The notes below the pieces were generated by a model. That model worked only from the letters and a program-made list of their open reading frames with translations. It did not search any database and had not been told where the DNA came from. This document shows, piece after piece, positions 2,385-17,200 of a DNA stretch of 64,000 bases. Where the stretch lies: NCBI GenBank assembly GCA_964504025.1, contig CAZDCO010000001.1:1397-65396 (forward strand). Direction: 5' to 3'. How positions within the stretch are numbered: the first letter of the stretch is position 1; every line of letters starts with the position of its first letter. Origin of the DNA: an uncultured Clostridia bacterium (lineage in GTDB: Bacteria; Bacillota; Clostridia; Christensenellales; Borkfalkiaceae). The translations under genes were made by a program, and so were the position numbers.

Positions 2385-3857
2385 ATGCGGTTGACGAAGT
2401 TGGTAAGCAGTATCGGAGAGATCCGTTGGACGGAACGGGGCGAAGAAGAAATCAACGTAACGGCGTTATTCGCGGACAGTCGGCAAACGCGCGAAGGCGG
2501 TTTGTTCTTTTGCTTGACAGGCGGCGAGCAGGACGGACATTCGTTTGCGAAAGAGGCGGTAGAGCGCGGTGCGGTGGCAATCGTAGCGGAACGGCAGTTG
2601 CCGATCGACGTACCGCAAGTGCTTGTTGTAAACGCGCGTATAGCGTTGGCAAAGACGGCGGCGCGCTTTTACGGCAACCCCGAAGAACGGTTGAAAATCG
2701 TCTCCGTTACGGGCACGAACGGAAAAACGACGACGACGTATATGCTACAATCGATCTTGGAACGCGCCGACAAAAAAACGGGCGTCATCGGTACGCTCGG
2801 CGCGTGCGGCAACGGCGCACTGCTCCCGACGGCGTTGACTACGCCTGATCCGATCGAGTTGTTCCAAACGCTTGCTCGGCTCTTTTTACAAGGCGTCGAA
2901 TACGTCGTCATGGAAGTGTCCGCACACGCGCTATATTATCATAAGGTTTACGGAATCCCGTTTGCGGCGTGTATTTTCACCAACTGTACGCAAGACCATT
3001 TAGATTTTTTCAAGACGATGGACGACTACGCCGCGACGAAGGCAACTCTGTTCCGTGCGGAATGTTGTCCGATCGCCGTCGTCAACGGCGACGACGAAGA
3101 GGGAAGAAAGATCGGTGAAATGCGCGCGGAAACGGGCGCGCCCACCCTCTATTACGGTTTGCATACGCCCACCGACGCCTTCGCGATCCTCACGCACGAA
3201 TCGCTGTCGGAAACGGAGTGCCTGTTCAACGTAAACGATAAGCTGTGTCGGGTGCGTTTGGCAATAGTAGGACGGCATAACGTATATAACGCGTTGGCAG
3301 CGGCGACGTGCGCTACGGCGCTCGGAATCTCGCTTTCCGCCATCGCAAAGGGCTTGTGCGGCTTGTCGGGCGTTCGCGGTCGGTTGGAGCGCGTAACCGA
3401 ATATCACGGCGCGCAAATATTCGTCGATTACGCGCATACGCCCGACGGCTTGGAACAATCGCTGAAAACGATCAAACGGCTGTGTCGCGGACGGGTGATT
3501 TGCTTGTTCGGTTGCGGCGGCAATCGGGATAAGAGTAAACGAGCGATTATGGGCGAGAAAGCGGCGAAGTCGTGCGATTTTTGCGTGCTGACGTCCGATA
3601 ATCCGCGCTACGAAGATCCCATGGATATTCTCGCGGAAACGGAGAGGGGGTATCGCCGTTTTTCCATGCGCTACGTCGTCGTTCCCGAACGCAAGGACGC
3701 TATTCGGTACGCGATCGACATTTTGAAAGAGGACGACGTATTGCTCGTGGCAGGCAAGGGCGGAGAAGAATATCAGGAAATTATGGGTATAAAATATCCC
3801 TTCGACGACAATGCTATCATTGAAAAAATAATACGGGAAAAACGGGAAACGCTCTAA
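2385..3857 (+). CDS. murE: UDP-N-acetylmuramoyl-L-alanyl-D-glutamate--2,6-diaminopimelate ligase
   Basis: Mur ligase P-loop VTGTNGKTTT, the DNPR motif (LTSDNPRYEDP) typical of meso-DAP-adding MurE, an AGGAG RBS, and a position upstream of mraY. Confidence 0.92.
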   Translation: MRLTKLVSSIGEIRWTERGEEEINVTALFADSRQTREGGLFFCLTGGEQDGHSFAKEAVERGAVAIVAERQLPIDVPQVLVVNARIALAKTAARFYGNPEERLKIVSVTGTNGKTTTTYMLQSILERADKKTGVIGTLGACGNGALLPTALTTPDPIELFQTLARLFLQGVEYVVMEVSAHALYYHKVYGIPFAACIFTNCTQDHLDFFKTMDDYAATKATLFRAECCPIAVVNGDDEEGRKIGEMRAETGAPTLYYGLHTPTDAFAILTHESLSETECLFNVNDKLCRVRLAIVGRHNVYNALAAATCATALGISLSAIAKGLCGLSGVRGRLERVTEYHGAQIFVDYAHTPDGLEQSLKTIKRLCRGRVICLFGCGGNRDKSKRAIMGEKAAKSCDFCVLTSDNPRYEDPMDILAETERGYRRFSMRYVVVPERKDAIRYAIDILKEDDVLLVAGKGGEEYQEIMGIKYPFDDNAIIEKIIREKRETL

Positions 3858-3884
3858 CGCACGGCGGTTTTCCTTGCGGAGTTT

Positions 3885-4838
3885 ATGAAAGACTACTTAT
3901 ACGCGCTGCTTTGCGCTTTTGCCACGTCCTTGCTGTTTTGTAAAACGCTCTTGCCGATCCTAAAACGACTGCACGTAGGACAAAATATTCTATCCTACGT
4001 CGAGGAGCATAAGAACAAAAACGGCACGCCGACGATGGGCGGTTTGGCGTTCGTGGCGGCGGCAACGCTGACGACGGCACTCTTCCTGCGCACGCGTACG
4101 CGCGTCGTAACGCTGACGCTCGTCGTGGGTTTGGCGTATGCGTGCGTCGGCTTTTTAGACGATTTTTTGAAGTGTAGGCGAAAGGATAATCTCGGCTTGC
4201 TCGCCTGGCAAAAATTCGGCTTTCAAATCGCGATCGCGCTGTTTATCGGCTATTTTTGCGTCAAGAACGGTTTGACGACTTGGTCGATTCCTTTTTTGTC
4301 GTTTTCCGTAGACATCGGTTGGTGGGCGTTTCCGTTGACGGTATTTGCGTTCGTTGCTACGACGAACGCCGTAAACCTCACCGACGGTTTGGACGGCTTG
4401 GCGTCCGCCGTCAGTATTCCGTACTTTTTCACCATCGGCGTACTCGTTCTCGTAGGGGAGAGGGATACGGGAGTGGGAACGGTATGTTTCGCGCTCGTCG
4501 GCGCGTTGTCGGCGTACTTGCTGTTCAATAGTCATCCTGCGAGCGTGTTCATGGGGGATACGGGTTCGCTATCCCTCGGCGGTTTTGCCGCTTGCGTGTC
4601 GGTGTTTACGGGCAACGCCTTGTATATCCTCGTCGTCGGCGCGTGTTTCGTGGCGTCCGTGATTTCCGTAATCGTGCAAGTTGCGTATTTTAAGTGTACG
4701 GGCGGCAAACGAGTGTGGCTTATGACGCCCCTGCATCATCATTTTCAAAAGAAAGGCTATTCGGAAACGAAGATTGCCTACGCCTATTTCGCCGTTACCG
4801 TACTCCTCGGTACGCTGTGTATCGTAGCCGCGCTCTAA
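3885..4838 (+). CDS. mraY: Phospho-N-acetylmuramoyl-pentapeptide transferase
   Basis: Polytopic membrane protein with NAVNLTDGLDGLA, MGDTGSL and PLHHHF motifs. Confidence 0.95.
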   Translation: MKDYLYALLCAFATSLLFCKTLLPILKRLHVGQNILSYVEEHKNKNGTPTMGGLAFVAAATLTTALFLRTRTRVVTLTLVVGLAYACVGFLDDFLKCRRKDNLGLLAWQKFGFQIAIALFIGYFCVKNGLTTWSIPFLSFSVDIGWWAFPLTVFAFVATTNAVNLTDGLDGLASAVSIPYFFTIGVLVLVGERDTGVGTVCFALVGALSAYLLFNSHPASVFMGDTGSLSLGGFAACVSVFTGNALYILVVGACFVASVISVIVQVAYFKCTGGKRVWLMTPLHHHFQKKGYSETKIAYAYFAVTVLLGTLCIVAAL

Positions 4839-4877
4839 CGGGAAAGGGCACGCAAAATATCGTTAAGGAGAAAAAAT

Positions 4878-6299
4878 ATGTATCCGAAAAGACAATCGTT
4901 TTTGGTGCTCGGTTTATCCCGTTCGGGACGGGCGGCAACGGAGTTTTTGTTGCGTAAAGGCGCGCGCGTGTATATCTACGACGACGTTACGAGCGCGCGT
5001 TTAGAGGAAACGGCACGGGAGTTGTCGGAAAAGGGCGCGGTGCGTGTCGATAAGGAAACGTTGCCCACGGCGATCGAGCGTTGCGACGCGCTGGTACTCA
5101 GTCCGGGAATTCCGATCGATCACGAAGTGTCGGTGGCGTTCAAAAAACGGGGCAAAGCCGTCGTCGGGGAAACGGAGCTTGCGGCTCGCTACGGAAAAAA
5201 CGCCGTCGTTGCCGTTACGGGCACGAACGGAAAAACGACTACGGTATCCCTGCTTGCGCGGTTGCTGAACGCAGGGGGAGTTGCCGCCTACGCTTGCGGC
5301 AATATCGGAACGCCTTTGATTGAATACGTCGATCGCGGAGAAGAGGACGTCGCCGTCGTGGAAATATCCAGCTTTCAGTTAGAAACGCTCAACTCGCTTT
5401 GTCCGCATATCGCCGTCGTACTCAACGTAACCGAAGATCATCTCAATCGGCATTATACCATGGACAATTACGTATTTTTGAAAGCGAAACTCTTGAAAAA
5501 TTGTTCAGGTGCGGAATACGCGGTGCTCAATTACGACGATGAAATCGTGCGCGGTTTTGCGGAGCGTACGAAGGCGCGCGTCGTGTGGTTTTCAACGCGT
5601 GAACGGGTACACGGTGGGTACGTAGAGGACGGTTACCTGACCTATCGCGGCGAAAAGATATTCCCCGTTGCCGACCTGCCTATCCGCGGCGTACATAATC
5701 TTTCCAACGCGTTGGCGGCAGTCGTCGCGGCAAAACTCATGGGCGTGGCGAACGATAAAATCGCCGAAGGCTTGTCCTCTTTCAAGGGGGTAAAGCACCG
5801 CATACAGGAAATCGCGACCGTTCGCGGCGTAACGTACGTGGACGATTCTAAGGGCACGAACGTGGACGCTACGTTGAAAGCGGTTGCGTGCATGCGCGCC
5901 GATACCGTGTTGCTCCTTGGCGGTAAGGATAAGGGGTACGAATATAAACGCCTGTTCTCCGCGCTGAAAGGGAGTAAAGTCGTGCACGCCGTATTGTACG
6001 GGGAAAACAGATACGCTTTGCTTGCGGCGGCACGAGAACGCGGCTTTACAAGCGTAACCGTATGCGAATCGTTCGACTTCGCCGTGCGCGTGGCGATTTT
6101 GCAAGCACGGGAGGGACAAATCGTTTTGCTTAGCCCTGCCAGCGCAAGCTTCGACGAGTTTGCAAGCTATGAAGAGAGAGGTGACGCCTTTGCGAAAATC
6201 GTGGAAAGCCTTACGGAAGAGAACGGAGCGGAAAGAAACGACGACGTGGCAGGAAATGCAAACGACGACGCACCCGATCGCGAAGAGGAAAGAGAATAA
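4878..6299 (+). CDS. murD: UDP-N-acetylmuramoylalanine--D-glutamate ligase, with an acidic C-terminal tail
   Basis: N-terminal Rossmann GLSRSG, P-loop VTGTNGKTTT, and dcw-cluster position after mraY. Confidence 0.9.
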   Translation: MYPKRQSFLVLGLSRSGRAATEFLLRKGARVYIYDDVTSARLEETARELSEKGAVRVDKETLPTAIERCDALVLSPGIPIDHEVSVAFKKRGKAVVGETELAARYGKNAVVAVTGTNGKTTTVSLLARLLNAGGVAAYACGNIGTPLIEYVDRGEEDVAVVEISSFQLETLNSLCPHIAVVLNVTEDHLNRHYTMDNYVFLKAKLLKNCSGAEYAVLNYDDEIVRGFAERTKARVVWFSTRERVHGGYVEDGYLTYRGEKIFPVADLPIRGVHNLSNALAAVVAAKLMGVANDKIAEGLSSFKGVKHRIQEIATVRGVTYVDDSKGTNVDATLKAVACMRADTVLLLGGKDKGYEYKRLFSALKGSKVVHAVLYGENRYALLAAARERGFTSVTVCESFDFAVRVAILQAREGQIVLLSPASASFDEFASYEERGDAFAKIVESLTEENGAERNDDVAGNANDDAPDREEERE

Positions 6300-7395
6300 A
6301 CGCCGCGGCGATCCGCTTATTCTGTGGTTGACCGTCGCGCTGTCGGCGTTCGGCGTCGTGGCGATCTATTCGGCAAGCTCGTACGTGGCGGAAACGCAGT
6401 ACGGCAACGCGTGGTTTTTTACCAATAAACAGCTCGTCGGTTTGGCGATCGGCACGGCGGCTATGCTCGTTTGCGGTAGGTTGCCGTACGAAAAATTAAA
6501 GGGTAAGCGCGTTCGCCACGTCGCGCTGATTTTGCCGATGATCTTGCTCGCGCTCGTGTTCGTACCGGGGCTGGGTAAAAGCAACTACGGCGCGACGCGT
6601 TGGATCGCGATTGGCGGCGTAACCGTGCAACCGTCCGAGTTGGCGAAATACGGCTTCGTAATCTACGCGTCGGCGTATATGAGCGACAATATGCAAAATA
6701 TGCGTACCTTCAAGGGTACGATTCCCGTCTTTCTTGCGGGCGGCGCGATATGCCTGTTGATTATCGTCGAACCGAATATGTCCGTTACGATGTGCGTCGG
6801 TATGTTGATGCTGGCAATGCTGTTTTTGGGCGGTATGCGTTGGCGACACTTGTTGCCCGTGTTGCTTCCCGTCGTGCTTGCCGTACCCGTACTCATCGCC
6901 GTAGAGCCCTATCGACTGTCGCGGCTGAGTGCCTTTTTAAACCCTTGGGAAAATCCGAGGGGTGAGGGGTATCAGTTGATCCAGTCGTTGTACGCGCTCG
7001 GTAACGGCGGTTGGTTCGGTACGGGCTTGTTCCGCTCGCGGCAAAAATACCGCTTCTTGCCCTTTGCGGAAAGCGACTTCATTCTATCGATTATCGGGGA
7101 AGAGTTGGGGTTCGTCGGCGTTGCGGTACTCTTCGCCGCTTGCGCGTTGCTCGTCGCGCGCGGTGTACGCACGGCGGCACGCGCCAAAGATTTCTTTTCC
7201 TTTTTGTTGGCGTCGGGGATCACCCTCGTCTATGGAATACAAACGGTTGTCAACGCACTCGTCGTCAGCGGCAGTATTCCGCCGACGGGTTTACCGTTGC
7301 CGTTGATCAGTTCGGGAAATACGTCCTTGATCGTTACGATGGCGTCTATGGGGGTGCTGTACGCCGTTTCGGTGCGGAACGAGCAAAGCGGATAA
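6256..7395 (+). CDS. ftsW: SEDS-family peptidoglycan polymerase FtsW (start uncertain; the ORF opens at 6160)
   Basis: Multi-TM protein with FGVVAIYSASSY, QPSELAKY and LPLPLISSGNTS motifs. The upstream part of the ORF overlaps the murD tail, so an internal ATG at 6256 is preferred. Confidence 0.85.
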   Translation: MQTTTHPIAKRKENKRRGDPLILWLTVALSAFGVVAIYSASSYVAETQYGNAWFFTNKQLVGLAIGTAAMLVCGRLPYEKLKGKRVRHVALILPMILLALVFVPGLGKSNYGATRWIAIGGVTVQPSELAKYGFVIYASAYMSDNMQNMRTFKGTIPVFLAGGAICLLIIVEPNMSVTMCVGMLMLAMLFLGGMRWRHLLPVLLPVVLAVPVLIAVEPYRLSRLSAFLNPWENPRGEGYQLIQSLYALGNGGWFGTGLFRSRQKYRFLPFAESDFILSIIGEELGFVGVAVLFAACALLVARGVRTAARAKDFFSFLLASGITLVYGIQTVVNALVVSGSIPPTGLPLPLISSGNTSLIVTMASMGVLYAVSVRNEQSG

Positions 7396-7454
7396 AAAGT
7401 GCAGCACAATACGCGCCGCCTTTTTCATATTATAAAGCAAAGGAGCTTTATCGT

Positions 7455-9115
7455 ATGGACACTTATCTTATAAACGGCGGTGAAAGATTATACGGAAAAT
7501 TGCAAATACAAAGCGCAAAAAACGCCGTTTTGCCTTTGCTTGCCGCTTCCGTCTTGACCGACGAGCAGGTAAAAATCAGAGGTGTACCGCCCATCTCCGA
7601 CGTGGAAAATATGCTGCGTATTTTAACGGAAGTGGGTGCGAAAGTGAAACGTAATGGCGAATATACCGTCATTGACAGCTCGAACGCTATTTCTCACGAG
7701 ATCCCTGCGCGACTCACCAAAGAGTTGCGTTCTTCGGTTTTTATGCTCGGTAGCGTCTTGACGCGCTTTCGCCGCGCGCGCATTTCCTATCCGGGCGGTT
7801 GCGACATAGGTTTGCGCCCGATCGACTTGCATTTGTCGGGCTTGAAACGGCTTGGCGTGGATATTATCGAAGAGGGCGGTTTCATCGAATGTCGCGCCGA
7901 TACCTTAAAGGGCGCGGAAATATTGTTGGACTTTCCGAGCGTAGGCGCGACGGAGAATATCATTTTGGCGGCGGTGAAAGCGGAGGTGTACCGCCCATCT
8001 CCGACGTGGAAAATATGCTGCGTATTTTAACGGAAGTGGGTGCGAAAGTGAAACGTAATGGCGAATATACCGTCATTGACAGCTCGAACGCTATTTCTCA
8101 CGAGATCCCTGCGCGACTCACCAAAGAGTTGCGTTCTTCGGTTTTTATGCTCGGTAGCGTCTTGACGCGCTTTCGCCGCGCGCGCATTTCCTATCCGGGC
8201 GGTTGCGACATAGGTTTGCGCCCGATCGACTTGCATTTGTCGGGCTTGAAACGGCTTGGCGTGGATATTATCGAAGAGGGCGGTTTCATCGAATGTCGCG
8301 CCGATACCTTAAAGGGCGCGGAAATATTGTTGGACTTTCCGAGCGTAGGCGCGACGGAGAATATCATTTTGGCGGCGGTGAAAGCGGAGGGTATGACGGT
8401 GATCCGCAACGCGGCGAAAGAACCGGAAATCGTCGATTTGCAAAATTTCCTCAACGCGATGGGCGCGAAAGTGGGCGGCGGCGGTGGCGGCACGGTATTC
8501 GTCGAGGGCGTAAAACGGCTGTACGGCGTCGAGTATACGCCGATCAAAGACCGTATCGAGGCTGGTACGCACTTGATCGCGGCGGCAATGTGCGGCGGCG
8601 AAATCGAAGTCGAGGGCGTGCAAGCGGAAAATATTGCGGCTCTTTTACATAAATTGCGTGAAAACGGTTGCAAAATACATACGAAAAATGATAGAATAGT
8701 ATTGCGTAGCGACGGAAGGCTACGCGCGGTAGATTTGGTGGAAACGATGCCCTTCCCGGGCTTTCCTACCGATTTACAGGCGCAATATTCCACGCTGTGT
8801 TCCGTCGCGCTCGGCACTACGCTCGTGGTGGAGAATTTGTTTGAAACGCGATACAAATTCGCGGCGGAGTTAAAACGCATGGGTGCGGATATCACCGTGC
8901 GCGACCGTACCGCCGTCGTACGCGGCGTAGAACGGTTGCACGGCGCGAAAGTGTTGGCGAGCGATTTGCGCGGCGGCGCGGCACTCGTACTGGCAGGCTT
9001 GGCGGCGGAGGGCGATACGACGGTTTTGGACGTGGCGCATATCGATAGAGGGTACGCCGATTTCGAGTATAAGCTGAAAAAACTCGGCGCGAAAATTCGT
9101 CGAGTACGCGTATAA
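7455..9115 (+). pseudogene. murA: UDP-N-acetylglucosamine 1-carboxyvinyltransferase, interrupted by a 404-bp tandem duplication (frameshift)
   Basis: The N-part (frame of ORF 7011..8030, ATG 7455) stops at 8030. The C-part continues in the frame of ORF 7799..9115. Removing one 404-bp copy restores a single 1257-nt frame with the active-site PGGCDIGLRPIDLH. Confidence 0.9.
7581..8388. repeat. Perfect direct tandem duplication, 2 x 404 bp (7581-7984 and 7985-8388) inside murA
   Basis: The sequence reads identically at an offset of 404 nt. Identical antisense ORFs occur at 7623..7832 and 8027..8236. The peptide GVPPISDVENML...AAVKAE occurs twice. Confidence 0.95.
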
Positions 9116-9154
9116 AAAGAGTAAGAAGAGTAAAAACTACCAAAGAGGGAACGT

Positions 9155-9958
9155 ATGAAAACGAAAAGGATAGCAACCGTCTTGTTGACGCTCGTCGTGT
9201 TTTTATCGGCAGTCGTGTTGGGTATAACCACCGTCTACCGCGTAGACGACGTGCGTGTGGATATCGTCGCGTTGTCGAACGAGGGGCGCACGGAAGCGGA
9301 AAACGTGCAGGCGCGCTTGAAAAAAGCGTACTATAAACAGGGTATATTTTCCACCGATCGAACGAAAGCGGACGAAGTGCTTTCGGAGTTTCCCTATTTG
9401 CGTTTGGTTTCCTTTTCGCGCGCGTATCCAAACCTGCTCGTGGTAGAGCTTGCCGAGGACGAAGAGGTATACGCCGTACCCACGGACGAAACGAACGCCT
9501 CGTTCTATATCTTGAACGACGAGGGCATCGTGCTCGGTACGCGGAACGATTACGTCAATCGCGTGGATAGCGACGTGCAGGCGAAAAACGTCTTGTTGAC
9601 GGCGGAGCGTATCGGCAGACCGCTGACGGGGGAAGATTGCAAGTCGGTGTTCTTTCCGTTTTGTCAAAGCTTGAACGAAATGTTAGACGATAAGATCCGC
9701 GCGAACGTTACCGCGATACGGTTCGTCGCGCCGACTTCGCAACCCGAGCAGGCGTATTATTGCATACAAACGACGGAGGGAGTGCGGCTGTATTTGTTCG
9801 GGGCGACGGAAAACGCGGTGGAAAAGGCGCGTAAGGCGTTAGAAAAATACGCTTCGTTGTCCGATACGCAAAAGATGACGGGACGCGTCGCCGTTCGCGA
9901 GGACGCGCAAGGTTTGTACGCGGACTATTCGGAACACGACGATTTTTCAAGAGAATAA
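9155..9958 (+). CDS. ftsQ: Cell division protein FtsQ/DivIB-like (single TM plus POTRA-like domain)
   Basis: N-terminal TM segment IATVLLTLVVFLSAVVLGI, a POTRA-like segment YRVDDVRVDIV...NLLVVELAEDE, and a position between the mur genes and ftsA. Confidence 0.65.
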   Translation: MKTKRIATVLLTLVVFLSAVVLGITTVYRVDDVRVDIVALSNEGRTEAENVQARLKKAYYKQGIFSTDRTKADEVLSEFPYLRLVSFSRAYPNLLVVELAEDEEVYAVPTDETNASFYILNDEGIVLGTRNDYVNRVDSDVQAKNVLLTAERIGRPLTGEDCKSVFFPFCQSLNEMLDDKIRANVTAIRFVAPTSQPEQAYYCIQTTEGVRLYLFGATENAVEKARKALEKYASLSDTQKMTGRVAVREDAQGLYADYSEHDDFSRE

Positions 9959-9971
9959 CGATAAATACCGT

Positions 9972-10001
9972 AAAAACGCGTGGAGAACACGCGTTTTTTT
10001 C
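9972..10001 (+). terminator. Rho-independent terminator
   Basis: AAAAACGCGTG-GAGAA-CACGCGTTTTTTT is a perfect stem followed by a T-run. Confidence 0.8.
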
Positions 10002-10011
10002 TTTTGAGTTA

Positions 10012-10040
10012 TTGACATTTGCTCGCGTTTGGTGTATAAT
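10012..10040 (+). promoter_or_regulatory. Sigma-A-type promoter for ftsA-ftsZ
   Basis: TTGACA (10012-10017), a 17-nt spacer, then TATAAT (10035-10040) preceded by TG. Confidence 0.7.
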
Positions 10041-10094
10041 AATAAAAAGGTTTGTAGCTATACGCCAAATCTTGTTACGGAGAGAGGAAAACGA

Positions 10095-11282
10095 ATGAAA
10101 AACGAAAGCGTTGCCGTTTTAGACGTACGTTCTTATGAAATCACCTTTTTTCTCGGCTCGAAGGGGGTAAACGACACCTTCGTGCTCGGCGGCAGTCATA
10201 CCGAACCGTACGAAGGTTTTTCCAAAGACGGATTTTTGGATAAGGAGTCCTTCCGTCGCGCCGTCGTTGCCGCGATCACTTGCGTGCGGCAAAATTACGA
10301 AGGGGTGATCGGGGAAATTTTCGTGGGCGTTCCCACGGCGTTCGTATCCCTGCAAACGAAAGGGCATACGCTCTCCTTCCCTCGCAAACGGAAAATATCC
10401 TCTCCCGATATCGATATGCTCTACGAAAGCGGCTTGAACGAGTTGCTTCCCAAAGGGCGTTGTATCCGCAGCTCCGATATGTATTTCACGCTCGGCGATA
10501 ACCGTAAATATTTTTCGGCAGAAGACCTGTTCGGCGTTCCGACGGCACTTCTCAAAGGCGGCTTGTCCTACTATTTCATTGACGAATCGTTCTACGCGAC
10601 GGCAACCGCCGTCTTAAACGATTTGGGCTTTGAACGGGTGCGCTTTTTGCCTACTTCGTTGGCGCAGGCGTTGTATCTGTTCCCCGAAAAGAGAAGGGAA
10701 GGGTACGCGTTCTTGTTAGACGTCGGCTTTTTGACCTCTTCCATGTCCGTCGTGTACGGCAACGGAATCGTACACGAAGAAACGTTCGATTGCGGTTTGG
10801 GCACGGTGCTGGTGGCTTTGATGCAAGAGCTGGACGTCGAGTACGAAACGGCGCAGGAAATCTTATCCGCAACCGACGTGTCGGGCGGCAGCGTACCGAA
10901 AGACTTGTTGTGGAGTAGCGAACGGGGGAACGAATCGTTCTCCGTGCAACGGATCAACGAAATCGTCAAATGCGCGTTGGACGTGCTTTGCGAAAACGTG
11001 GAAACGTTCTTTGAAAAATATTACAGGGAACGCGCGACTGTCGCGCTCGCCGTAAATCCCGTATCGCTGACGGGCGAGGGAATTATGGGCGTCGTCGGCG
11101 CGGCGGAACATATATCCAAACGACTCAATCGGCTGACGGAAATCGTCTATCCCGATTTACCTTATTACGACAAGCCCTCCTTTTCGTCGAAGATCGCGTT
11201 GCTCGATATGGCGATCGGCGATCGGAAACGCCGCGGCTTGCGCTATAAAATTTTTAATACTTTCGGAGGAAAAAAGAAATGA
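10095..11282 (+). CDS. ftsA: Divergent actin-like cell division protein FtsA
   Basis: It lies directly upstream of ftsZ and overlaps it (ATGA). Actin-fold-like phosphate motifs LDVRSYEITF and LLDVGFLTSSMSVV are present, and a GGAGAGAGG RBS precedes ATG 10095. Confidence 0.65.
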   Translation: MKNESVAVLDVRSYEITFFLGSKGVNDTFVLGGSHTEPYEGFSKDGFLDKESFRRAVVAAITCVRQNYEGVIGEIFVGVPTAFVSLQTKGHTLSFPRKRKISSPDIDMLYESGLNELLPKGRCIRSSDMYFTLGDNRKYFSAEDLFGVPTALLKGGLSYYFIDESFYATATAVLNDLGFERVRFLPTSLAQALYLFPEKRREGYAFLLDVGFLTSSMSVVYGNGIVHEETFDCGLGTVLVALMQELDVEYETAQEILSATDVSGGSVPKDLLWSSERGNESFSVQRINEIVKCALDVLCENVETFFEKYYRERATVALAVNPVSLTGEGIMGVVGAAEHISKRLNRLTEIVYPDLPYYDKPSFSSKIALLDMAIGDRKRRGLRYKIFNTFGGKKK

Positions 11283-12700
11283 TGGACAACTACGGACAAA
11301 ACGAAAACTACGGCTACGAGAGCGTGAATACAAATGCGTTTACGCCCGACGCTAGCAACAACCTTTCCGGCGTGGCAAAGATCAAAGTCATCGGCGTCGG
11401 CGGCGCGGGTAACAACGCCGTGGATCGCTTGATCGAATCGGGCTTGCGCAGTGCGGAATACGTCGTCGTCAACACGGATAATCAGGCGTTGGCGCGTTCC
11501 AAAGCGAGCAATCGCGTGCAAATCGGCGTGAAATTGACGAAAGGTTTGGGCGCAGGCGCAGATCCTTCCGTCGGTAAAGCGGCTGCGGAAGAAAACAAAG
11601 AACAAATTCAAGAGTATTTGAAAAACACCGACTTGCTGTTTATTACGGCAGGTATGGGCGGCGGCACGGGTACGGGTGCGGCACCCGTCATCGCGAAGAT
11701 CGCGAAAGAGATGAAAATTCTCACCGTTGCGGTGGTAACATTGCCGTTCAGCTTCGAGGCGAAACGCCGTATGGATAACGCCCTTGCAGGCGTGGAAGAA
11801 TTGCGCAAATCGGTCGATTCGCTCATTACCATTCCCAACGATAAGATTCGTCAAGTCGTTCCGCGCGGCACGTCTTTCTCCGATTCGTTGAAGGTTGCCG
11901 ACGAAGTGCTTAGACAGGGTATCCGCGGCATTGCGGAATTGATCGTGAAATCTTCGCTTATCAATTTGGACTTCGCCGACGTCAAAGCGACGTTGAAAGG
12001 TCGCGGTTTGGCGCACATGGGTATCGGCGTTGCCAAGGGCGAAAAACGTATTTCCGACGCCGTGCGTTGCGCGGTTTGCAGTCCTTTGCTCAATACGACG
12101 ATCGAGGGCGCAAGTTCGGTCATTTTGAACATTATCGGCGGCAAAGATTTGTCTTTGGATGAAGTGGAAATGGCGGCGGATTTGGTACGCGGAGTAATCG
12201 ACTATTCCGCGAACGTTATCTTCGGCGCGTGTATCGACGAGAGTATGTCTGACGAAGTGGAAGTGGTCATCATCGCGACGGGCTTTAACAATCAGCAAAA
12301 CGGACTTACGCCCGACGCGCAGGAGAACGCACTCCGTCAAGCGGCGTTATTGTCCAAAAAGATCGATATGGCGTACGCCGAACCGCAACGGGAAGCCGCG
12401 GCAACCGCGTATCCTCAACAACCGTTCGCAGAAGGGGTAACGTACGCGCAACCCATCGCGCCGCAACAGCCCGTATACCCGACGTACGCACTGCCTATGC
12501 AACCGCAACAGCCCACGTACGGCGCACCTGCATACGCGCAGCCTATCCCTCAACCGCAACCTATGCAACCGCAACAGGCGGCGGCGTTCGAGCCGGACGA
12601 TCCCATTCCCGATAGCTATAAGAACGAAGAAAAGACGGATAGAAAGCACCGTCCGAAATTCGTGGACTATTTCATTAAACGCAACAACAAAGACGAATAA
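11279..12700 (+). CDS. ftsZ: Cell division GTPase FtsZ with a long Q/P-rich C-terminal linker
   Basis: GVGGAGNNAV and the tubulin signature GGGTGTGAAP, followed by NTDAQAL-like NTDNQAL. Confidence 0.97.
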   Translation: MMDNYGQNENYGYESVNTNAFTPDASNNLSGVAKIKVIGVGGAGNNAVDRLIESGLRSAEYVVVNTDNQALARSKASNRVQIGVKLTKGLGAGADPSVGKAAAEENKEQIQEYLKNTDLLFITAGMGGGTGTGAAPVIAKIAKEMKILTVAVVTLPFSFEAKRRMDNALAGVEELRKSVDSLITIPNDKIRQVVPRGTSFSDSLKVADEVLRQGIRGIAELIVKSSLINLDFADVKATLKGRGLAHMGIGVAKGEKRISDAVRCAVCSPLLNTTIEGASSVILNIIGGKDLSLDEVEMAADLVRGVIDYSANVIFGACIDESMSDEVEVVIIATGFNNQQNGLTPDAQENALRQAALLSKKIDMAYAEPQREAAATAYPQQPFAEGVTYAQPIAPQQPVYPTYALPMQPQQPTYGAPAYAQPIPQPQPMQPQQAAAFEPDDPIPDSYKNEEKTDRKHRPKFVDYFIKRNNKDE

Positions 12701-12708
12701 ACACGGTA

Positions 12709-12739
12709 GGCGGCGCAAACTTGCGCCGCCGCTGTTTTA
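12709..12739 (+). terminator. Rho-independent terminator after ftsZ
   Basis: GGCGGCGC-AAACTT-GCGCCGCC followed by GCTGTTTT. Confidence 0.7.
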
Positions 12740-12796
12740 CTCTTTTTTAGGCTGTCGGCAAGGCATATCTTCGCGGTGTAGCGCGTACAATATTGT

Positions 12797-14143
12797 ATGC
12801 GAGAAAACGGGAATTACGGAAAGAGTATCTATTTTATCGGTATCGGCGGCATCAGCATGAGCGCACTTGCGAAACTCGTGCGGCTCGACGGTTATACCGT
12901 ATCGGGCAGCGACGCCGTCCGTAGCGAGGAAACGGAAGACTTGCTCCGCTACGGGATCGAAGTGTTTATCGGCACGGACGGGCAAAGAATGGCGTTACGG
13001 AACGCGGACGTCGTGGTGTATACCGACGCGATTGCAAGCGACGATAGCGAACTCGTCGCGGCGCAAACGTTGGGCAAACGCATACTTTCGCGCGCGGAGT
13101 TGTTACAACTCGTTTGCGCGTCGTACGCCGACTCGATTGCGGTGGCAGGCAGCCACGGCAAAACGACGTGCACCTCGATGTGCGCGCATATTCTTCGCGC
13201 CGTCGGCGTACCGTTTACCGCGCATATCGGCGGCAGGGATAGTGAATTCGGCAATTTCTATTCGACGGGCAAAGAGTTCTTTTTGACGGAAGCGTGCGAA
13301 TATAAGCGTAACCTCTTAAAATTGCGCCCGACGGCGGCGGTATTGTTGAATATCGATCGCGATCACATGGAATGTTACAACGGCGCGGAAGATTTACGAA
13401 ATTGTTTTCGTGCTTTTTGCTCAACGGCGAAAACTGCGTTCGTTTGCGCGGACGACGAAGGGTGCAGGCGTTTAGGCGACTTTTCTACGTTCGGCGTTAC
13501 GTACGCGCTTGCCGATTATCGCGCGGTAGACGTTCGGACGAACGGCGAACGGTATTCGTTCACGGTAGAAGAGTACGGTAAGCTGCTTTGTCGGGTGCGT
13601 TTGCGCGCCATCGGCAGGTGCAACATGTATAACGCTTTGGCGGCGTTTGCCGTTACGCGTTCGTTCGGTTTTTCCGAAAAACAAATCGCCGAGGGGCTAT
13701 CCTCGTTCACGGCGGTGAAACGACGCTTTGAACGCATGGGCAGCTATCGCGGCGCGACGGTGATATGCGATTACGCGCATCATCCGAGGGAGATCGCCGC
13801 GACGGTGGCTACGGCGGAGGGAATATGTAAGGGCGCGCTGTACGTCGTCTTTCAGCCGCATACCTATTCTCGCACGCGCATGCTCTTGTCCGAGTTCGTG
13901 CGCGCCCTCCGACCGATCAAGAATTTGATGATCTATAAGACCTATCCCGCGCGTGAAAAATTCGACGAAGAGGGCAGCGCGTTGCGTTTGTCGCAATGCG
14001 TGGGAGATTGCCTGTATTCGGAGAACGCACACGTTTTGAAAACGTGGTTAAAAAAGACGGTGAAAGACGGGGACGTCGTGCTGTTTTTGGGCGCAGGCGA
14101 TATCTATTTTATCGCGCAATATATCCTGAAAGAATTTAAGTGA
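12797..14143 (+). CDS. murC: UDP-N-acetylmuramate--L-alanine ligase
   Basis: IYFIGIGGISMSALA N-terminal Rossmann motif and AVAGSHGKTTCTSM P-loop. Confidence 0.92.
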   Translation: MRENGNYGKSIYFIGIGGISMSALAKLVRLDGYTVSGSDAVRSEETEDLLRYGIEVFIGTDGQRMALRNADVVVYTDAIASDDSELVAAQTLGKRILSRAELLQLVCASYADSIAVAGSHGKTTCTSMCAHILRAVGVPFTAHIGGRDSEFGNFYSTGKEFFLTEACEYKRNLLKLRPTAAVLLNIDRDHMECYNGAEDLRNCFRAFCSTAKTAFVCADDEGCRRLGDFSTFGVTYALADYRAVDVRTNGERYSFTVEEYGKLLCRVRLRAIGRCNMYNALAAFAVTRSFGFSEKQIAEGLSSFTAVKRRFERMGSYRGATVICDYAHHPREIAATVATAEGICKGALYVVFQPHTYSRTRMLLSEFVRALRPIKNLMIYKTYPAREKFDEEGSALRLSQCVGDCLYSENAHVLKTWLKKTVKDGDVVLFLGAGDIYFIAQYILKEFK

Positions 14144-14157
14144 ACGAAAAAAGAATT

Positions 14158-14216
14158 AAAAACGGACGGTAGAGGCGAAGAAAGGAAAAAACTTCGTTTT
14201 TCGTCCGTTTTTTTTG
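14158..14216 (+). terminator. Long hairpin terminator after murC
   Basis: AAAAACGGACG ... CGTCCGTTTTTTTTT, with an inner CGAAG/CTTCG stem. Confidence 0.75.
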
Positions 14217-14299
14217 CTTGAAACTATTGATAATTATGAAAAAAAATGATATAATTAAACGGTATAATATCGTAGAAAATCTAAAAAGGGGGATTCCTT

Positions 14300-17200
14300 T
14301 TGAAAAGGCAAGAAGAACGTCAAGAAAACCGAAAAGAAAGTACGAACGATTTGGTAACCAAGGAAACGATTTGCGCCGTATTCGCGCTGCTTTCCCTGCT
14401 CGCTTTGTTTATCCTTTGCACGGGAGAGTTGGTATTCGGAACGATCGGATATTCCGTTTGCGTCTTTTTAACGGGCTTGTTCGGTTACGCCGCCTATCCC
14501 GTATGTTGCGGCGCGCTCTATTTGTGCGTAACGGCGTTGATCGGCAAGCGTTTGATTAAAAACAGATGCGCGTTCGTCCGTATCGTCGTCGCCGTCGTTT
14601 GCGCGGCGTTGATCGTACATACGGCAACTACCTTTTCTTGGGCTTCGGAAACGTATTTGTCGCAATGCTTTGCCGCAGGCGAGAAATTTCCTGCCGTAAC
14701 CGTATGCGGTTGGGTGGGTGGTTTGTTGGTGGCGTTGCTTTCCGCCATTACGACGAAAGTCGGCGCGCTCGTTGTCTTTTCCGCGTTGACGCTCTTTTTC
14801 GGCTACCTCGCGTATGCGGCGTTGACGAAGGGAACGAAAGCGGAAACCGAAACGAATACGGCAATGCCCGTACAGTCTACCGTTACCCCCGTGGAAATTC
14901 CTTTGACGAATACGCCGTCGGTGCGTCCGCAAGAAGGAACGGTGCAATCGAATGAAATTCCGTTTGAACGGGTAGAACCGCAGGAAAGACGTCCGTTCTT
15001 TGAAGAACCGGTTGCGCAGCGCCCTGCGTTTACGCTTGCCGATACGCCTACCGAACAGCCTGCGCAAGGGGGCGCGTTCTCACCGTTCGCTACGCCCAAC
15101 GAAACGAACGAGAGGGGATATTCCTACGAGGACAGCCGCGCGTTCTTGTTCGGCGGTACGCCTGCGGAAAATTATCAACGCAATTTGATTTTCGATCCCA
15201 ACGCGAACGTGAATAAACGTCCGCCCGTCGATCCGAACGAGAACGGCGTATTGCAAAGCGGCTACACGCCGTCGTATACGGAAGCTTATCAAAACGCAGT
15301 CAACGCGGAACAGCCCGTGCGCCCGATGAAAATCTTTTCCGATCGCACCGAACGGACGTATGAACCTGCACAGCCGATCGTGGAAACGCCCGTAACGCCG
15401 TTGCAACCGATCGAACCGCCCGTCGTAGAAGAAACGCGACCGCAACCGATCGTGGAAACGCCCGTTGCGGAAGAGCGTACGTATACGCAAGTTTACGAAG
15501 AACCGCAGGAAGAACCTACTCGTTCTTCCGAAGGGTATCAACGGCACGAATATATGGATCTTTTTTCGTCGGCTAATCCCAACGTGTTCGGCAACTCCGA
15601 AGAGGATAGACGATTCGCGGACGAAACGTTCGATAGAACGCCCGTTTCCGCTCGAGAGGAAGAACGAGCGGACGGAACGGAACTCCCCGAACGGGACGGC
15701 TTGCACATCTTCGACGAAGACGAACCGTACTCGCTTAGAACGGACTTTGAAGAACGCCGAACGGACTTTGAAACGCGCGATCGTTTTGACGATAGAAACG
15801 ACGATAGAGGCTTGTCGCGCGATATTGAACCTGTGCGCGACGACGAGTTGTTGGCGGTGCGCGACGATAGGGTGATTTCCGATCGTTTTGAAACGCCGAC
15901 CGTGCAAAAAACGGTAGAGCCAGAACCCGTCAAAAAGGAAGAACCTGCGCCTGCACCGCCGAAACCGCGCGTCATTCGTCCGTACGTGCGCGTACCTTTG
16001 GACGATTTTGATTGCCGCGACGTAGAGCCGTTGCAAAACCCCGAAGAAGTCGAGGAAACGAAAGCGACCATTTTGGCGACTTTGGAAGATTATAAAGTTA
16101 CGGGCGCGTCGATTGCTTCGGTAACGTTCGGACCGACCGTTACCCGCTACAATGTTACGATTCCTCGGAACATTCCGCCGAAGAAAGTCGTCGCACTCGA
16201 TCAACCGATGGCGATCAGCTTATATTCGAGCGGCGTCAATATCTATCCCAATTACGAAGACGGCGTCGTCAGTATCGAAGTGCCGAACAAACAACGGCAA
16301 TTCGTACAACTCGGTTGTATGCTGTCGGGGGATACGTACGTCAACGCCAAGTCGTCCTCCATTATGTTTGCTATGGGTAAGGACGCAGGCAATCGCAAAG
16401 TATACGGGGACATTTCCAAAATGATCCACTTGCTCGTAGCTGGTTCGTCCGGTTCGGGTAAGAGCGTATTTTTAGGTTCGCTAATCATCAGTTTGATTTA
16501 TAAATACTCTCCCGAAGAGTTGCGTTTGATTTTGATTGACCCCAAAAAGACGGAATTCGTCTTGTATAACAACCTGCCGCACCTTATGATCAACGAGATC
16601 ATTACGGACGCGAATAAGGCTGTACAAAGCTTGAATTGGGCAATCGGCGAAATGAATCGTCGGTACGGTTTGTTTGAACAGATGAGCCGTTCGGGAACGT
16701 ACGTCGTCAATTTGGATCAATACAACTCCCACCTCGAAAAAGCCGAGCGTTTGCCTAAGATCGTCATCATTATAGACGAGCTTGCCGACTTGATGCTCGC
16801 GGCGAAAAAGGATATCGAAGACAAAATACAAAACTTGACGCAAAAGGCGCGTGCCGCAGGTATACACCTCGTCGTGGCAACGCAGCGTCCGTCCACCGAC
16901 GTCATTACGGGCGTCATTAAGAGTAACTTGCCCACCCGTATCGCGTTCGCCGTGGCAACCGACGTGGACTCGCGCGTTATCCTCGATCAATCGGGTGCGC
17001 AAAAGCTACTCGGCAAAGGCGACTTCCTGTATACCATGCAGGGCGTAAATACGCCCGTGCGCGTGCAGAGTGCGTTCATTTCTTCGGAAGATTCGCAACG
17101 CGTCGTCAACTTTATTAAAGCGAACAACGAGGCGTATTACGACGAAAGCGCGACGGCGTTTATCAACAATACGCGCGGTTCGTCCGAAGGCGGCGCAGGC

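Follow-up and report, generated by a model that had tools for sequence, protein, structure and literature searches.

Does the bacterium from which this DNA derives really carry a broken copy of murA, the gene for UDP-N-acetylglucosamine 1-carboxyvinyltransferase, which catalyses the first committed step of peptidoglycan synthesis, or was the gene broken only in the course of reconstructing the genome? The question is raised by a 404-bp tandem duplication inside the gene. The window, that is the whole stretch of 64,000 nucleotides which was analysed, corresponds to C1:1397-65396 of a metagenome-assembled genome. This assembly totals 1,314,882 bp in 116 contigs (N50 28 kb) and includes fifteen 100-N gaps; its completeness is 96.3% and its contamination 0.5%, with approximately 4% of the genome unassembled.

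The gene is part of a block devoted to cell division and cell-wall synthesis, the annotation of which is based upon Pfam matches taken from identical or near-identical contigs. The order is murE, mraY, murD, ftsW, murA, a 267-amino acid gene in the position of ftsQ, a 395-amino acid gene, ftsZ, a second Mur ligase and ftsK. The 395-amino acid gene has no Pfam match, and murA occupies the place in the block which is usually that of murG. The features of the block and of the duplication are as follows.

2385-15100: division and cell-wall block
6256-7395, plus strand: ftsW/rodA-family gene directly 5' of murA (379-amino acid call; PF01098 on an identical Logan contig)
7455-8030, plus strand: 5' fragment of murA as assembled (PF00275, and TIGR01072 model positions 1-178)
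7579-7582, plus strand: GAGG microhomology, the first of three (the others at 7983-7986 and 8387-8390)
7581-7984, plus strand: first copy of the 404-bp unit, covering MurA codons 43-177 and including the YPGGCDIGLRPIDLH active-site loop
7985-8388, plus strand: second copy of the 404-bp unit, which creates the novel junction 7984/7985
7984/7985, letters across the junction: ...GGCGGTGAAAGCGGAGGTGTACCGCCCATC...
8015-9115, plus strand: remainder of murA in its downstream frame, read from ATG 8015 (Met53) as far as the natural stop (366 amino acids, the N-terminal 52 residues missing)
9155-9958, plus strand: 267-amino acid gene directly 3' of murA in the ftsQ/divIB position (no Pfam match)

Direct comparison of 7581-7984 with 7985-8388 confirmed the claim of the first-pass annotation that these blocks of 404 bp are identical, and a perfect repeat of this length cannot have originated by chance. 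The same annotation had put the microhomology at the junction at 2 nt (GG), which is an underestimate. Every base from 7579 to 7986, a run of 408 consecutive positions, is the same as the base 404 nt further on, and since the period is 404 nt the junction microhomology amounts to 4 nt; GAGG is found ahead of, between and after the two copies.

The ATG at 7455 is preceded by a ribosome-binding site (AAAGGAG), and the frame which it opens encodes MurA residues 1-177. As 404 leaves a remainder of 2 on division by 3, the frame shifts at the junction, adds 15 out-of-frame residues and terminates at a TAA (8028-8030), exactly where a stop had previously been placed. From 7985 a different frame specifies MurA residues 43-418 and runs to the natural stop at 9115. 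The deposited murA is consequently an interrupted frame which TIGR01072 matches in two pieces, positions 1-178 and, from 7985 onward, positions 43-416. Contrary to the original description, the downstream remainder is not devoid of starts of its own: TTG 7799 and ATG 8015 are both candidates, the latter lying 13 nt ahead of the stop of the upstream frame. A 366-amino acid protein with 100% identity (P0010) is present in the protein database, which fits a gene call from ATG 8015; the contig to which it is assigned measures 70,089 bp, as does C1.

Removal of one copy yields an open murA frame of 418 codons ending at 9115 and retaining the Cys motif, as had been anticipated. The collapsed protein scores 510.2 bits against TIGR01072, which is above the MurA equivalog threshold (cut-off 392.7), and just 84.9 bits against TIGR01356, the model for aroA. 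Two motifs could be read from its sequence: AKNAVLP near residue 22 and, within the duplicated unit, the Cys-containing loop YPGGCDIGLRPIDLH. We take the Cys to be the catalytic residue and the target of fosfomycin, and the Lys of the AKNA motif to be the counterpart of Lys22, in both cases on the model of E. coli MurA. By its length, its active-site loop and its location between ftsW and the ftsQ-position gene, within a cluster for division and cell-wall synthesis, the collapsed gene conforms to the typical MurA.

A cell might tolerate such a disruption if it possessed a second murA, as was proposed when the duplication was first noticed. The Firmicutes are known for MurA1/MurA2 (MurAA/MurZ) pairs, in which the second member is a paralogue. 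A tblastn search of the whole assembly with the collapsed MurA returned the murA locus only, and tblastn, PF00275 and TIGR01072 together revealed no second murA or murZ in the 96.3%-complete assembly, with a small chance of a missed gene. The sole other gene with a PF00275 match (C33:2964-4178, minus strand) was considered as a candidate and discarded; it scores as AroA, with 370.9 bits against TIGR01356 (cut-off 287) and 59 bits against TIGR01072. Among the congeners, each of the 16 genomes with a match has one murA match, and none of these (0/16) contains internal stops. They are full-length in 14 genomes, and the short matches in the other two (G005 and G006) are probably cut by contig ends. 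In other families of the same order the number of murA genes per genome ranges from one to three, and one genome is without a match. The genus thus appears to have one murA only, unlike the Firmicutes with paired genes, and rescue by a paralogue is closed as a route. In the absence of a second murA, fixation of the disruption would deprive the cell of the one enzyme with which it commits itself to making peptidoglycan.

The duplication in murA is one of many. Self-comparison of the whole assembly revealed 13 tandem duplications, all of them perfect or nearly so, the periods of which are 138, 206, 208, 231, 275, 282, 304, 375, 404, 462, 477, 496 and 572 bp. The copy number is exactly two in each case, and 12 of the 13 are perfect across the full period. 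One of them, 6 kb upstream of the murA unit, is located in the same window. The 11 outside the window cover the full range of 138-572 bp, and ten of these are perfect with 1-5 nt of microhomology.

1203-2156 (C1:2599-3552): two perfect tandem copies of a 477-bp unit over the 3' part of a minus-strand HAD-hydrolase gene (1 nt microhomology)
C6:36786: duplication in the gene for an FAD protein
C15:11779: 462-bp duplication in tatD
C16:21382: duplication in htpG
C3:41276, C4:40689, C23:4668, C27:8422, C30:10703, C37:3097, C50:2716 and C74:950: the other duplications outside the window

The genes affected encode a HAD hydrolase, an ABC transporter, a phage terminase, an FAD flavoprotein and an ECF S-component; they also include tatD, htpG, uppP/bacA, a large methyltransferase-like gene and murA, besides unnamed genes. 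The gene calls of record at the duplicated loci are unreliable. Seven of the 13 periods are not divisible by 3. A bias towards in-frame periods was considered as a sign of selection and rejected, six of 13 being not above chance (P=0.24), and nothing in the sequences suggests that the duplications have been selected. As a control, 542 kb of two congeneric assemblies were examined and contained no tandem duplications of ≥100 bp, while 5.4 would be expected if the density in this assembly is applied to 542 kb (P=0.005).

The junctions themselves are informative. All 12 perfect ones possess microhomology of 1-5 nt, for a sum of 38 nt and a mean of 3.2 nt. Random break-points would be expected to give a total of approximately 8-9 nt, or about 0.7 nt per junction. 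The excess is significant both in a simple model (P ~1e-9) and by comparison with random placements in this genome (P=0.002). Microhomology of this kind is what template switching by a polymerase would leave, in the cell or in the tube, and what the blind end-to-end pasting of overlapping contigs would not. Tandem duplications mediated by microhomology arise in living cells too, and for this reason the signature of the junction cannot separate an in-vitro from an in-vivo origin. No inverted junctions within contigs were seen in the self-comparison of the assembly.

Other samples of the species were accessible through the Logan contigs of public runs, which were reached via exact-protein look-ups. 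In four other runs murA is intact and single-copy, and encodes a 418-amino acid protein with 100% identity.

SRR17221342: intact murA, DNA identity 99.7-99.9%
SRR17221324: intact murA, DNA identity 99.4-99.7%
SRR21733471: intact murA, DNA identity 99.5-99.6%
SRR22923243: intact murA, DNA identity 98%

Contigs of SRR22923244 and SRR22923233 also traverse the 404-bp unit once, which makes it single-copy in six other runs in all (L015-L018, L059 and L061). The duplicated murA allele was found neither in the contigs of these six runs nor in the 16 congeners. The 477-bp unit is likewise single-copy in L015, L018, L059 and L060, as is the 462-bp tatD unit in SRR17221324 (identity 99.9-100%). For the three loci checked (murA, 477-bp and 462-bp), no sample outside the source run has the duplication.

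One further run, SRR17221345, is 100% identical to the window across all 16 kb recovered (L012, L014 and L062) and, judging by this identity, is very probably the source run of the assembly. Two of its contigs approach the duplication from either side.

4455-7608, plus strand: Logan contig SRR17221345_853396 (L014), 100% identical
8361-15958, plus strand: fetched part of Logan contig SRR17221345_33624 (L012), 100% identical

The first of these ends on the 30-mer 7579-7608, which is the first one common to the paths "upstream to unit" and "unit to unit"; here a unit looping on itself would give the graph a second incoming edge. The second begins 30 nt before 8391, the first base which separates "unit to unit" from "unit to downstream". 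These 30-nt offsets agree with k=31, which we take to be the value used for the Logan graph. Since the contigs branch exactly at both ends of the unit, the unit-to-unit junction of murA must be present in the reads of SRR17221345. A k=31 graph is blind to a single-copy murA allele in this run, as such an allele would have no words of its own.

The 477-bp duplication behaves differently in the same run, where L062, also 100% identical, crosses the unit once and unbroken. It is not the main allele in the matching run, and perhaps not any allele, so that at least one sibling duplication is not fixed in the data which match the assembly. Between the end of L062 (4444) and the start of L014 (4455) the stretch 4445-4454 is uncovered, though the deposited contig is continuous. 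This gap among words seen at least twice would point to modest or low coverage of the genome in SRR17221345. The 135-amino acid cut product of 7581-7985, expected from a Logan contig containing the unit only, is not on record, probably because that contig is too short to be reached by gene calling. None of the loop break-points predicted at htpG, the FAD protein gene and tatD was found in Logan by exact-match look-ups, which may fail trivially, and this fits weak junction support at those loci. The ispH-S1 fusion gene neighbouring the htpG locus was looked up as an entry point and is not on record; a literature search on the run accessions gave no result.

It is highly likely, in our judgement, that the 404-bp duplication is an artefact of sequencing or assembly, a rare template-switch chimera having generated a graph loop which the assembler walked once. 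A few reads in SRR17221345 would join the end of the 404-bp segment back to its own start at GAGG, and a chimera joined in this manner would have the signature of template switching by a polymerase. The junction words would turn the murA segment into a self-loop in the de Bruijn graph; by walking this loop once the assembler would write the segment twice, and so split the only murA on paper. At modest coverage two reads, even if these were both mates of one chimeric fragment, could keep the junction in the graph. The same process would have operated at about a dozen other sites in the assembly, and the true gene is most likely the single-copy 418-amino acid murA, as in all other samples of the species.

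Much of this account was observed: the topology of the loop, the sibling duplications, the enrichment in microhomology, and the single copies both in conspecific samples and, for the 477-bp sibling, in the same run. The junction molecules would have originated in vitro, during library preparation or amplification, rather than in a few cells; coverage would have been low, and each loop would have been traversed a single time. The largest of the duplications (572 bp) has roughly the size of a library fragment, which would fit slipping back on a single template molecule. Of the first-pass annotation as a whole, then, the consequences drawn for the frameshift, the stop and the collapsed frame hold, while its biological readings do not. 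Its fallback, that the duplication is an artefact, is favoured by the presence of some 13 such duplications in the assembly and by the single copies in near-identical strains. Its suggestion of a reversible on/off duplication is not supported, as approximately 13 equivalent events at unrelated loci are not locus-specific.

Two further repeats were noted at gaps in the assembly. An exact 167-bp repeat (C5:20041-20207 and C5:20312-20478) flanks one 100-N gap, and a repeat with approximately 97.5% identity (C83:1-81 and C83:202-282) flanks another. Both resemble loops of the same kind left unresolved, or else contig ends which overlapped and were scaffolded unmerged.

We regard it as unlikely that the duplication is real but not fixed, in the sense that a subpopulation in one sample carries a GAGG-mediated duplication in murA and that this minority allele was the one assembled. 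The carrier cells would be a dead end or transient, or their repeats would recombine back to one copy. Junction words in the reads of SRR17221345 are what such an allele would leave, and 4 nt of microhomology is the mark of RecA-independent duplication in vivo. The same would, however, have to hold simultaneously for about 13 unrelated loci, other frameshifts included. At modest coverage, some 13 junction fragments in tens of thousands would correspond to roughly one fresh duplication per genome copy, a rate far above those known in vivo, and, with several of the events lethal or damaging, not a credible one. Moreover, cells in which the only murA is broken cannot make peptidoglycan, and the cleaned graph of this run retains nothing of the 477-bp sibling.

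Very unlikely is a purely computational join, in which a scaffolder or gap closer would have pasted together contigs overlapping by 404 bp with no read spanning the junction. The fifteen 100-N gaps, the repeats across gaps on C5 (167 bp) and C83 (~97.5%) and the 477-bp duplication, for which the Logan contigs of the same run contain no junction, would all be in keeping with an error of this type. Against it, the contigs of SRR17221345 break at 7608 and 8361, as reads across the junction predict, and the mean microhomology over 12 junctions is 3.2 nt in place of the 0.7 nt or so expected at random. The murA junction itself is in the reads, and for this locus a join unsupported by any read, which would be the simplest kind of artefact, is the wrong explanation.

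It is highly improbable that the population makes short microhomology-mediated duplications at an extraordinary rate, or is heterozygous on multiple chromosome copies, with murA surviving through translationally coupled 192- and 366-amino acid fragments that come together as an active enzyme or through frequent collapse. Least probable by our reckoning, and barely tenable, is a real and fixed duplication in a cell kept alive by complementation between the 192- and 366-amino acid fragments or by an unassembled second murA: the overlap of start and stop (ATG 8015, stop 8028-8030) would permit translational coupling, about 4% of the genome is unassembled and some families of the same order have two or three murA genes, but no paralogue was found and the 16 congeners have one murA each, the 366-amino acid product lacks the N-terminal segment bearing the conserved Lys of the AKNA motif, twelve siblings point to a common non-biological cause, one of these, if not more, is not fixed in that run, and near-identical strains are intact.

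An artefact arising from chimeric reads agrees in most respects with what is seen of false tandem duplications in short-read and metagenome assemblies. As with these, the repeats are exact and two-copy, they are scattered at random and show no frame bias, and the units, at 138-572 bp, are of the size of library fragments. Other assemblies of the species lack them, and one sibling is missing even where the same run was assembled independently. The difference lies in murA, whose loop reappears when the run is assembled independently, so that its junction is in the reads and was not made up by one program.

RecA-independent tandem duplications of bacteria resemble those described here in their head-to-tail copies and microhomology of a few bases, and, as in RecA-dependent collapse, the 404-bp repeats are long enough to recombine to one copy. 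Known bacterial duplications are rare, locus-specific, selected and usually kilobases long. In contrast to reversible duplications in bacteria, there are about 13 short, unselected events in 1.3 Mb here, one of which breaks the sole copy of an essential gene and none of which is common to near-identical strains.

For the mechanism, and as an analogy only, the chimeras formed in multiple displacement amplification (MDA) may be instructive. Their template switches take place when 2-21 nt of complementarity allow a displaced 3' end to prime, and more than 90% of short-range chimeras show such microhomology (Lasken and Stockwell 2007, PMC1855051). The presence of 1-5 nt at all 12 perfect junctions is reminiscent of this. 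Inversions account for 85% of the chimeras in MDA, and only 11/475 are direct joins of <10 kb (PMC1855051), whereas here the joins are direct and inverted junctions within contigs are lacking. An MDA or single-cell origin for the library was considered and set aside: the Logan contigs of this run are numbered to >850,000, which suggests a complex metagenome; the strains in the sibling runs are different ones (99.4-99.9% identity); and inverted joins predominate among MDA chimeras.

The cluster for division and cell-wall synthesis of this organism almost certainly contains a single murA that is intact and ordinary, and the biological interest of the locus is small. The assembly is the species' only entry in the genome collection searched, which holds one genome per species, and its approximately 13 false duplications truncate or pad at least 10 recognizable genes, including murA, htpG, uppP and tatD. 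Such errors have already entered the protein databases, the 366-amino acid "MurA" being an example, and anyone inferring gene loss, pseudogenization or a cell-wall deficiency from the record would be misled. The microhomology points to chimeric molecules among the reads, rather than to blind scaffolding, as the source of the error, which is useful for the screening of other low-coverage metagenome-assembled genomes.

Two breaks in the Logan contigs were observed elsewhere. Contigs of SRR22923222, SRR22923244 and SRR22923233 break inside murA at approximately 8664-8670; L013 starts at 8664, and 270-amino acid cut products occur in L059 and L061. This break has no relation to the duplication and is probably a branch due to strain variation. 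Upstream of the window L059, L060 and L062, from three runs, all end at C1:89, which is probably the edge of a repeat common to the genome or to the community.
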